This document shows, one piece after another, positions 15,207 through 16,379 of a stretch of 64,000 bases of DNA (position 1 is the stretch's first letter; the number at the start of each line of letters is the position of its first letter). A program made the position numbers and the translations under genes. The DNA is from Escherichia phage Nernie. The stretch lies in sequence record PP925835.1, one strand, 5' to 3'. Under the pieces are notes generated by a model that saw nothing but the letters and a program-made list of their open reading frames with translations, made no database searches and had not been told where the DNA came from.

Positions 15207-16379
15207 TTACATCTCCTTACTGTATACTAATTTGCCACCATATTGTGTAATAATTTTTTGAAGATTTTCCAAATCAGAAACACTTACTGTTTCTGTATAA
15301 CCATCTTTCAACTCTCTTGCCGTTAAAATACCAGTTTTTAATTTTTTCTTTATAGCTCTTTCAGCAGCCCTACATTGTTTCACTGTGCTAAAATCATATA
15401 AACAAATACGCTCCATAAAAAACAGATTACGGCTATTTTGACCGTTTAATCGTCTATCGCTATCTTTAGATATACCAAACTTAAGAGCAACTATAATATC
15501 ATTATCTTTAACAATATTAATATATAATTGCTGTTGATTATGACCAGCACACTGTGGACAACCTTGACCGAGACTTAATAAATTACGAGCACTCCCTATC
15601 TGCTCACCATGCACAAGACAAAGATATTTAAACTTACCTATAGAAGAGGGTTTGGTAATCCAATCTACCCAGACATACCCTTTCCCTTCTACTTCCTTTT
15701 TTACCCTATAGGTGATCTGGTCTTCTGTATACTGATAGTTCCCACAACGACACGGAATATACCCTTGTTTAAGGTTATGTCCTGCAGAGTAAAATTTACC
15801 ATCACAAACACCTGCTTGAACATATTCATCATGGGAGCAAACAGGACACTCAACCATCCATACTGCATCACGCTTGTTACGTTTCCCTGTATTGGTGAAG
15901 ATAGTGCCTTCCTTAAATTCCCCTGTAGAAAAGAAATCTGCAATATGTTGATCGTCGGACATTGTTTGTCTCTCCCTCTTACATTGTGGACAACCGCTAC
16001 CACGTTTAAAATTGTTAATACTTGTAGTATCCCATTTATTACCACAATGACACAACAAATCAAGTTTTGTTTTATTCCCTTTCCATTCTCCCACGTACCC
16101 TAACACCTGATACCCCCTCTTCTGTGCTATCTCTTCCAAGATCGGCAATTCTGTTTCCCATGTTAACGGCTTCTTACCAGAACAGATAGGACAACCACGT
16201 CCCTTCTTAAAATCATTAATGTTCGTGGTGTTCCACTCTCCATGTTTAGGGCAAGATAGCTTAAGTTTAGTCTTGTTCCCTTTCCATTCACCAACATAAC
16301 CCAGGATTTGAATATTGCGATTTTTAGCAAGGGGTGTTAATTCTTCTTTATATTGTTCCCATGATTTTGGTGCTGTCAT
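15207..16379 (-). CDS. zinc-ribbon repeat protein with C-terminal T5orf172/GIY-YIG-like domain
   Basis: Several repeats of ILGYVGEWKGNKTKL.L.C..HG.W.TT.IN.F.KG.GCP.C, then LYINIV...ALKFGISKDSDRRL. Confidence 0.5.
   Translation of the reverse strand: MTAPKSWEQYKEELTPLAKNRNIQILGYVGEWKGNKTKLKLSCPKHGEWNTTNINDFKKGRGCPICSGKKPLTWETELPILEEIAQKRGYQVLGYVGEWKGNKTKLDLLCHCGNKWDTTSINNFKRGSGCPQCKRERQTMSDDQHIADFFSTGEFKEGTIFTNTGKRNKRDAVWMVECPVCSHDEYVQAGVCDGKFYSAGHNLKQGYIPCRCGNYQYTEDQITYRVKKEVEGKGYVWVDWITKPSSIGKFKYLCLVHGEQIGSARNLLSLGQGCPQCAGHNQQQLYINIVKDNDIIVALKFGISKDSDRRLNGQNSRNLFFMERICLYDFSTVKQCRAAERAIKKKLKTGILTARELKDGYTETVSVSDLENLQKIITQYGGKLVYSKEM

Follow-up and report, generated by a model that had tools for sequence, protein, structure and literature searches.

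The minus strand of Escherichia phage Nernie (record PP925835.1) carries, between a gene for an AAA ATPase and a gene for a NADAR/YbiA-like protein, a complete coding sequence for a 390-aa protein that runs from an ATG start to a TAA stop codon (positions 15207-16379, with the stop codon at 15207-15209). Positions are those of the window, which is the whole stretch of 64,000 nucleotides that was analyzed. An earlier, sequence-only reading of this DNA had placed here a protein with repeated zinc-ribbon modules and a C-terminal T5orf172/GIY-YIG-like domain, and the coordinates it gave are exact, bounding a single minus-strand open reading frame. The upstream neighbor is the AAA ATPase gene (16454-17581), which is separated from the CapR/T5orf172 gene by a terminator-like hairpin, AAAACCCGCTCCGGCGGGTTTT, found by a terminator scan (16417-16438, minus strand); a terminator has been annotated at the equivalent place in phages Paula and Schickermooser. 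Reading of the sequence also identified a strong Shine-Dalgarno element, AAGAGGAG, 6 nt before the ATG (16386-16393, minus strand). At the other end, an AAGGAG in the last codons (K388-E389; 15213-15218, minus strand) was read as the Shine-Dalgarno element of the NADAR gene, and a ribosome-binding site has been annotated at the equivalent place in phi92. The ATG of the NADAR gene (15204-15206) directly follows the TAA of the CapR/T5orf172 gene, and this downstream neighbor (14655-15206; Pfam NADAR, 1.5e-36) is its immediate operon partner. The CapR/T5orf172 gene is free-standing, as is expected of a homing gene, lying between two conserved genes, behind a terminator and with a ribosome-binding site of its own. 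A repeat-rich non-coding region with iterated palindromes was observed about 0.8 kb from it.

The phage from which the window comes is phi92-like, a coliphage of the genus Justusliebigvirus in the Stephanstirmvirinae, and the 3 kb around the gene are 99.7% identical to the corresponding DNA of phages Paula and ZYD. The encoded protein has a 100% identical counterpart in Escherichia phage vB_EcoM_ZYD, where it is called a "hypothetical protein," and is 97 to 99.7% identical to RefSeq proteins named "endonuclease." No paralogue was detected in the window by tblastn, and the closest genomes each have a single copy.

Tandem CapR zinc modules

Pfam matched the CapR homology domain PF21817 to four stretches of the 390-aa protein (3e-43, 146.3 bits against a cutoff of 24.2), and the related zinc-finger families DUF4379 and DUF723 were matched as well. 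The four modules, all encoded on the minus strand, were also scanned singly against PF21817 with the same cutoff of 24.2 bits. Module R1 (aa 6-67, 16179-16364) scored 47.2 bits alone, has C43/H46/C63/C66 as candidate zinc ligands and is predicted to fold into a helix, three strands and a short helix (pLDDT about 90). Module R2 (aa 73-134, 15978-16163) gave 61.0 bits, with candidate zinc ligands C110/C112/C130/C133, and the diverged R3 (aa 141-213, 15741-15959) gave 52.6 bits, with candidate ligands C178/C181/C210/C212. Module R4 (aa 219-278, 15546-15725; candidate ligands C254/H257/C274/C277) reached only 21.2 bits alone, below the cutoff.

The sequence-only reading had described at least four repeats of the consensus ILGYVGEWKGNKTKL...CxxHGxW...GCPxC, each taken to be a zinc ribbon. 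The count holds, as there are four CapR modules, but the literal consensus is found only in R1 and R2; it is partial in R4, and R3 has diverged from it, so that the similarity among the repeats had been overstated. Over 67 aa, R1 and R2 share 52% identity (pairwise E of 1.4e-27), and R4 is a weaker copy that keeps the motif in part and aligns with R1 at a pairwise E of 8e-7. R3, which has the ligand order CxxC...28...CxC and a longer insert, is recognizable at the profile level only and aligns with "CPVCSEDMYTKAGVCTGRF...CRCS" of ICP1 gp121.

Ten of the candidate ligands, all cysteines (C63, C110, C130, C133, C178, C210, C212, C254, C274, and C277), are invariant in 31 homologues. C43, C66, and H257 are at least 90% conserved in the same proteins, and H46, C112, and C181 lie outside the conserved columns. 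Every module has two pairs of candidate Cys/His ligands, as do members of the CapR family, and metal binding is predicted; the zinc-ribbon nature ascribed to the repeats is borne out to this extent. The module scores, the repeat E values and the conserved ligands together mean that the observation of tandem modules is real and far beyond chance.

The similarity of R1 and R2 extends to their DNA. The core of R1, which encodes GYVGEWKGNKTKL (16263-16301, minus strand), and the core of R2 (16062-16100, minus strand) form a direct repeat, D2, whose copies are 82% identical and spaced by exactly 201 nt. They are the left and right partners, respectively, of a recombination-prone pair.

The C-terminal GIY-YIG-fold domain

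The modules are followed by a T5orf172-like nuclease domain (aa 282-388, 15216-15536, minus strand). The match to T5orf172 (PF10544), which the sequence-only reading had proposed for this segment, lies above the cutoff of 20 bits, although marginally (whole protein, 20.6 bits; C-terminal 112 aa alone, 22.7 bits), and covers positions 10 to 69 of the 101 in the profile. PHROG 681, "endonuclease," matched at 1e-87 over aa 6-389, while neither NCBIfam nor the PADLOC defence models gave a meaningful match and a match, respectively, for the 390-aa protein. Because the T5orf172 sequence match was marginal, the fold of the domain was modelled. The model of aa 279-390, made with 17 aligned homologues, has a pLDDT of 94.1 and a pTM of 0.87 and displays the alpha/beta fold of the GIY-YIG family. 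The eukaryotic GIY-YIG enzymes Slx1 and At-HIGLE differ from it in that they share only 14 to 16% identity and cut branched DNA with partner proteins; the resemblance is one of fold, not of biology. A Foldseek comparison of the whole-protein model with the PDB gave nothing significant, and a PDB sequence search with the C-terminal profile returned only chance matches to release factor 1 (E of about 3).

The profile of the C-terminal domain matched 1280 cluster representatives at E ≤0.001, 682 of them at E ≤1e-10, and in nearly all of the best 150 of the 1280 matches the domain is at or near the C terminus of the protein. Conservation was assessed in a sample of 64 proteins that have the domain and are 24 to 48% identical to the window protein. 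CapR modules are present in 60 of these, and T5orf172 is matched at an E of 0.01 in only 14. Nine residues are invariant in all 64 (Y286, K300, G302, R310, E340, D359, G360, E363, and T364). Among them are the GIY Tyr, the catalytic Arg and the catalytic Glu of GIY-YIG nucleases, namely, Y286 (15522-15524), R310 (15450-15452), and E340 (15360-15362), as well as E363 (15291-15293), all on the minus strand. The second motif of the domain is K300-F301-G302, and a later motif is D359-G360-x-T362-E363-T364. Counterparts of the YIG Tyr, the helix-1 His/Tyr and the conserved Asn were not found in the domain; Q314 occupies the position of the helix-1 His/Tyr, and D359-G360-x-T362-E363 lies in the region of the missing Asn.

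When the nuclease domain was compared by BLASTP with ICP1 Odn and gp121, it did not align with their T5orf172 domains. The profile alignment with both is weak (E of 0.005) but coherent. In the weak alignment with Odn (E of 0.005), K-F-G corresponds to K-V-G, R310 to the Odn Arg, E340 to E180, and DGYTET to DWSVET. The E180A substitution abolished cleavage by Odn both in vitro and in vivo (PMC8263062). Odn likewise lacks the YIG Tyr and the helix-1 His/Tyr and nevertheless cleaves DNA (PMC8263062). Since an active enzyme shares the first two of the motif deviations, we consider the C-terminal region to be a divergent, probably active T5orf172-type GIY-YIG nuclease domain. Both a T5orf172/GIY-YIG match and invariant candidate catalytic residues (Y286, R310, and E340) are present, and the nuclease assignment of the sequence-only reading has thus survived the comparison on which it could have failed. 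The marginal PF10544 match, the K-F-G motif and the weak alignment with Odn nevertheless count against it.

Homology and fold together show a "beads on a string" protein of four tandem CapR modules (aa 6-278) and a C-terminal GIY-YIG-fold domain (aa 282-388).

Allelic variation and occupancy of the locus

The number of modules differs among the homologues of this gene. Pfam counts three in 92CQ and tuntematon, four in the window and in phi92 gp222, and five in alia and Schickermooser. Judged by length and query coverage, KKE7M (990 nt) and EmilieFrey (325 aa) have three and PaulScherrer (467 aa) has five. The half-length match of KKE7M was considered as a possible rearrangement; this was rejected, as it is a three-module allele. 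The IMG/VR contig L010, with flanks identical to those of the window and 100% identity to it elsewhere, has an exact in-frame deletion of 201 nt, the junction of which lies inside the GAATGGAAAGGGAAnAAnACnAAACTT core common to R1 and R2. All of the observed deletions and duplications are in frame, with whole modules lost or gained.

Divergence is likewise concentrated in the modules. Between the window and phi92, identity is 91 to 100% in the flanks and the nuclease domain and 53 to 74% in the module region; in another allele, the difference sits in R1, and divergence within Justusliebigvirus is mosaic. For the DNA-binding part and the nuclease domain, respectively, the identities are 59% and 94% between the window and phi92 and 62% and 45% between the window and tuntematon. 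The two parts of the protein have separate histories. Whole genes have been exchanged as well. In Phapecoctavirus, the flanks of tuntematon and Schickermooser are 94 to 96.5% identical; between the genes that they enclose, no similarity could be detected in the DNA, and the two proteins are 35% identical. One breakpoint coincides with the ATPase stop codon, and the other lies within the gene, about 17 nt from its 3' end, in the stretch with the ribosome-binding site of the next gene. The locus shows evidence of horizontal replacement or turnover, as expected of homing genes. The array evolves through unequal recombination between its own repeats and through exchange of modules and whole alleles, changes that presumably retarget the enzyme. 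Meanwhile, the nuclease domain has a dN/dS of 0.2 to 0.5 among Justusliebigvirus alleles, and none of the loci inspected at the sequence level has an interrupted open reading frame. The sequence-only reading had suggested that the internal repeats may give modular DNA recognition, a suggestion that is supported indirectly by the alleles of three to five modules, the one-module deletion and the module-confined divergence.

Empty sites were searched for with queries in which both flanks were joined, so that only genomes free of the gene would match in one piece. The locus formed by the AAA ATPase gene, this gene and the NADAR gene is occupied in all 55 Justusliebigvirus records and in 70 of the 71 from Phapecoctavirus, with the flanks more than 900 bp apart, and there is therefore no clean empty site. 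Sporadic presence and absence with a recognizable empty target site, as would be expected of a homing gene, was not found in these 126 related genomes. The one exception, EP57, was considered as a natural empty site and rejected: at its junction, the stop codon of the ATPase is lost, and the ATPase reads into the next gene as a fusion. Several other deletions lie within the same 7 kb of the EP57 record, which falls 20 kb short of the length of its relatives; the gap in EP57 arose by secondary deletion or reflects an error of assembly and does not represent an ancestral empty site. Klebsiella phage KP2025 and the IMG/VR contig L012 have no such gene behind their ATPase, which is 74 to 75% identical; they were rejected as definers of the target site because they are too distant (about 70% DNA identity). 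No target site of the nuclease was identified by computation. As the locus is occupied in all but one of these records and the alleles differ in their modules, the position of the gene is fixed and its content very variable.

Function of the protein and relation to known enzymes

T5orf172 putative homing endonucleases with one or more CapR/DUF723/DUF4379 zinc-finger domains have been described (Netter 2021, PMC8096241; Barth 2023, PMC10448857). The homing-endonuclease-like architecture perceived in the sequence-only reading agrees with these two reports, with the profile searches, including the PHROG 681 match, and with the structure prediction. One of the closest likenesses is to the ICP1 enzymes gp121, gp174, and gp165, which are free-standing and consist of N-terminal repeated CapR/DUF723/DUF4379 modules and a C-terminal T5orf172 domain; gp121 aligns with the module region of the window protein with 25% identity (E of 3e-18). 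In ICP1 and other phages, repeat-mediated deletions and duplications, as in gp174*, domain shuffling and turnover beside conserved genes have been reported (PMC10448857), and the in-frame, repeat-mediated changes and the shuffling of domains are features shared with the gene studied here. The Justusliebigvirus phages muut and inny, which carry orthologues of the gene, already appear in the genome table of that study (Barth 2023, PMC10448857). However, the window nuclease domain belongs to a divergent subfamily with DGxTET, which is unaligned with the ICP1 domains by BLASTP and marginal in Pfam. Further, the genomes closest to the window have a single copy, whereas ICP1 has a suite of paralogues, and the window gene, unlike those of ICP1, occupies a single fixed locus in two genera.

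Other known systems resemble parts of the protein. PLE CapR, the repressor of the ICP1 capsid operon, gives its name to the zinc-ribbon module PF21817. It represses at the ICP1 capsid promoter (PMC8096241) and is the only protein with this module for which sequence-specific DNA binding has been reported, by an EMSA in which a Cys-to-Ser mutant was also tested (PMC8096241); R3 has the CxxC...CxC pattern of the residues mutated in that binding assay. CapR differs in being satellite encoded, with a single module and no nuclease domain, compared with the four modules and nuclease domain of the window protein. Of the close relatives, only ICP1 Odn (gp88, PMC8263062) has demonstrated cleavage; it cuts the origin of the PLE satellite (PMC8263062). 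It shares with the window protein the K-x-G second motif, the lack of the helix-1 His/Tyr and the conserved Arg and Glu, but in place of CapR modules it has, as its DNA-binding part, a RepA_N domain acquired from the satellite, and its role is antisatellite defence. I-TevI and the T4 Seg enzymes, which are intron-borne or free-standing in lytic phages, have a comparable "beads on a string" design, with a GIY-YIG domain tethered to a DNA-binding region that has a zinc finger. In I-TevI, however, the nuclease domain is N terminal, not C terminal as in the window protein, and the DNA-binding region differs; moreover, the canonical GIY...YIG, His and Asn motifs of I-TevI and Seg are only partly kept in the window protein.

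On these comparisons, the protein is most likely an active site-specific nuclease of homing-endonuclease origin. More specifically, we suggest, with a confidence only somewhat above even, that it is a free-standing endonuclease of the CapR/T5orf172 homing-endonuclease family that drives the conversion of its own locus. The module array would bind a long asymmetric DNA site, probably with one sub-site per module, and the bound array would position the metal-dependent nuclease domain for a cut nearby. In a mixed infection, the enzyme would cut phage genomes that have a sensitive sequence at or near its own locus, and recombinational repair would then copy the resident allele, together with its AAA ATPase and NADAR flanks, into the cut genome. 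Homing by T5orf172 enzymes has been inferred, not demonstrated, in the studies cited here and is likewise putative for the window gene. The absence of the gene behind the ATPase homologue in KP2025 and L012 counts for homing. The lack of an empty site in 126 related genomes is the chief weakness of this reading, and the single copy in each of the closest genomes also counts against it. Fixation and intactness throughout the subfamily suit a useful function as well as a selfish element.

As there is no clean empty site, there is room for three rival explanations: a domesticated nuclease, a regulator and a relic. It is conceivable, though we consider it unlikely, that the gene encodes an active, sequence-specific targeting nuclease that no longer spreads itself and is kept for the benefit of the phage. 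Such an enzyme would cut competing phages, satellites or host elements, with the module changes tracking changing targets. The hypervariability of the DNA-binding part in near-identical genomes is the pattern expected of an arms race, purifying selection acts on the nuclease domain (dN/dS as above), whose catalytic residues are invariant, and Odn provides the precedent of a T5orf172 nuclease with a swapped DNA-binding domain and a satellite target (PMC8263062). The NADAR-family operon partner, whose ribosome-binding site lies inside the gene, and the fixation at one locus in 55 of 55 and 70 of 71 records of two genera fit as well, but a completed homing sweep also yields fixation. In addition, the sharp replacement of whole alleles at the ends of the open reading frame resembles homing-endonuclease turnover, and domestication is further opposed by the lack of a target identified by computation and of any matching PADLOC defence model.

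A DNA-binding regulator, in which the module array represses or tunes phage transcription and the nuclease is inactive or occasionally used, appears still less probable to us. I-TevI represses at its own promoter. The YIG Tyr is replaced in the K-F-G motif, and neither the helix-1 His/Tyr nor the Asn was identified; CapR itself is a repressor derived from such an endonuclease (PMC8096241). The position of the gene, just upstream of the NADAR gene and translationally abutted to it, and the iterated palindromes of the non-coding region about 0.8 kb away also favor regulation. However, the nine C-terminal residues that include the catalytic Tyr, Arg and Glu do not vary among 64 relatives with identities as low as 24%, a degree of conservation that would not be needed in a mere scaffold. 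Odn, with K-V-G and without the helix-1 His/Tyr, still cleaves DNA, and the C-terminal domain is fused to CapR modules in 60 of the 64 proteins. That the gene is a decaying relic, a onetime homing endonuclease now without function and subject to drift, is very improbable and much less likely than the other two rivals. Fixed homing endonucleases are expected to decay, module deletions do occur, and one record (EP57) is without the gene; nevertheless, the open reading frames are full length in all loci examined, dN/dS is below 1, the indels are in frame and comprise whole modules, and the catalytic and zinc-ligand residues are invariant.

A more speculative view, which we hold to be doubtful, is that the gene encodes a fixed, naturally retargetable nuclease of the Stephanstirmvirinae that is no longer selfish and recognizes one DNA sub-site per CapR module. 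If so, the three-, four-, and five-module and mosaic alleles would represent different specificities against co-infecting phages or satellites, and natural variation would reveal in the CapR array a modular recognition code akin to that of zinc fingers.

The gene is of a known kind, being a member of a described family that is already in public records and partly annotated. As many GenBank records say "hypothetical," these could be given the name CapR-domain T5orf172/GIY-YIG-type putative homing endonuclease. This is correct annotation, not discovery; the added value is modest and comes from the natural experiment that the locus offers. Cultivable, near-identical phages of E. coli K-12 carry alleles of three, four, and five modules on the same nuclease domain, as in the BASEL phages Bas61 EmilieFrey (three modules, by length and coverage), Bas62 JohannJBalmer (four), and Bas60 PaulScherrer (five, by length). 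This set of alleles could reveal how CapR modules recognize DNA and whether T5orf172 genes home.

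Genes flanking the endonuclease

The upstream neighbour of the endonuclease gene encodes an AAA ATPase (window 16454-17581, minus strand; Pfam AAA, 1.5e-9), which is variously annotated in the records as an ATPase, an FtsH-like protease or a replicative helicase. This protein is 100% conserved between genomes that differ in their endonuclease alleles, and its homologues extend to jumbo phages that infect Pectobacterium, Erwinia, Serratia and Yersinia. On the other side, directly downstream, lies a gene for a NADAR-domain (YbiA-like) protein (window 14655-15206, minus strand; Pfam, 1.5e-36; PADLOC PDC-M42C, 2.5e-34). 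Its start codon abuts the stop codon of the endonuclease gene and its Shine-Dalgarno sequence is located within the endonuclease ORF, so any replacement of the endonuclease must keep the last ~17 nt of that ORF. The boundaries of the endonuclease alleles were found to coincide with these same nucleotides.

Related records with unusual features

At the endonuclease locus, five records labeled as Campylobacter phages, A150, A145, C3, A110a and B15 (GenBank MG065639, MG065645, MG065656, MG065689 and MG065650; record sizes of 146-151 kb), share about 91-99% identity with E. coli Justusliebigvirus or Phapecoctavirus phages. From this sequence comparison, their host label looks doubtful. Another unusual record is that of the Phapecoctavirus vB_EcoM_EP57 (OR544956.1), whose genome is ~20 kb shorter than those of its relatives. 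Compared with the Phapecoctavirus tuntematon, which carries the orthologous locus, EP57 (1500-4700 of its record) has at least four deletions (123, 372, 1058 and 124 bp) inside 7 kb, and one deletion takes out the endonuclease and leaves the ATPase fused with the ORF that follows. The EP57 record represents either a variant rich in deletions or an artefact of assembly.

Repeats and Fur-box-like sites in non-coding DNA

Downstream of the NADAR gene is a repeat-rich non-coding stretch (window 14100-14440) with three 15-mer palindromes, all of the type TGAGAATGATTATCA, as well as three direct repeats, each of about 63-67 nt. Its counterpart is annotated as "repeat_region" in the records of tuntematon and of alia, another phage with the orthologous locus. 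Inside the direct repeats, TTGAAC...TTTAAATAAT reads as promoter-like.

When the E. coli Fur-box consensus GATAATGATAATCATTATC was searched with up to three mismatches allowed, five matches were seen against 0.05 expected from shuffles. Fur-box-like sites are located at window 1983-2001, 2842-2860, 14124-14142 and 14177-14195; they are clustered and lie in the intergenic DNA of a lytic phage. With such sites, the phage may tie some of its early transcription to the iron status of the host.
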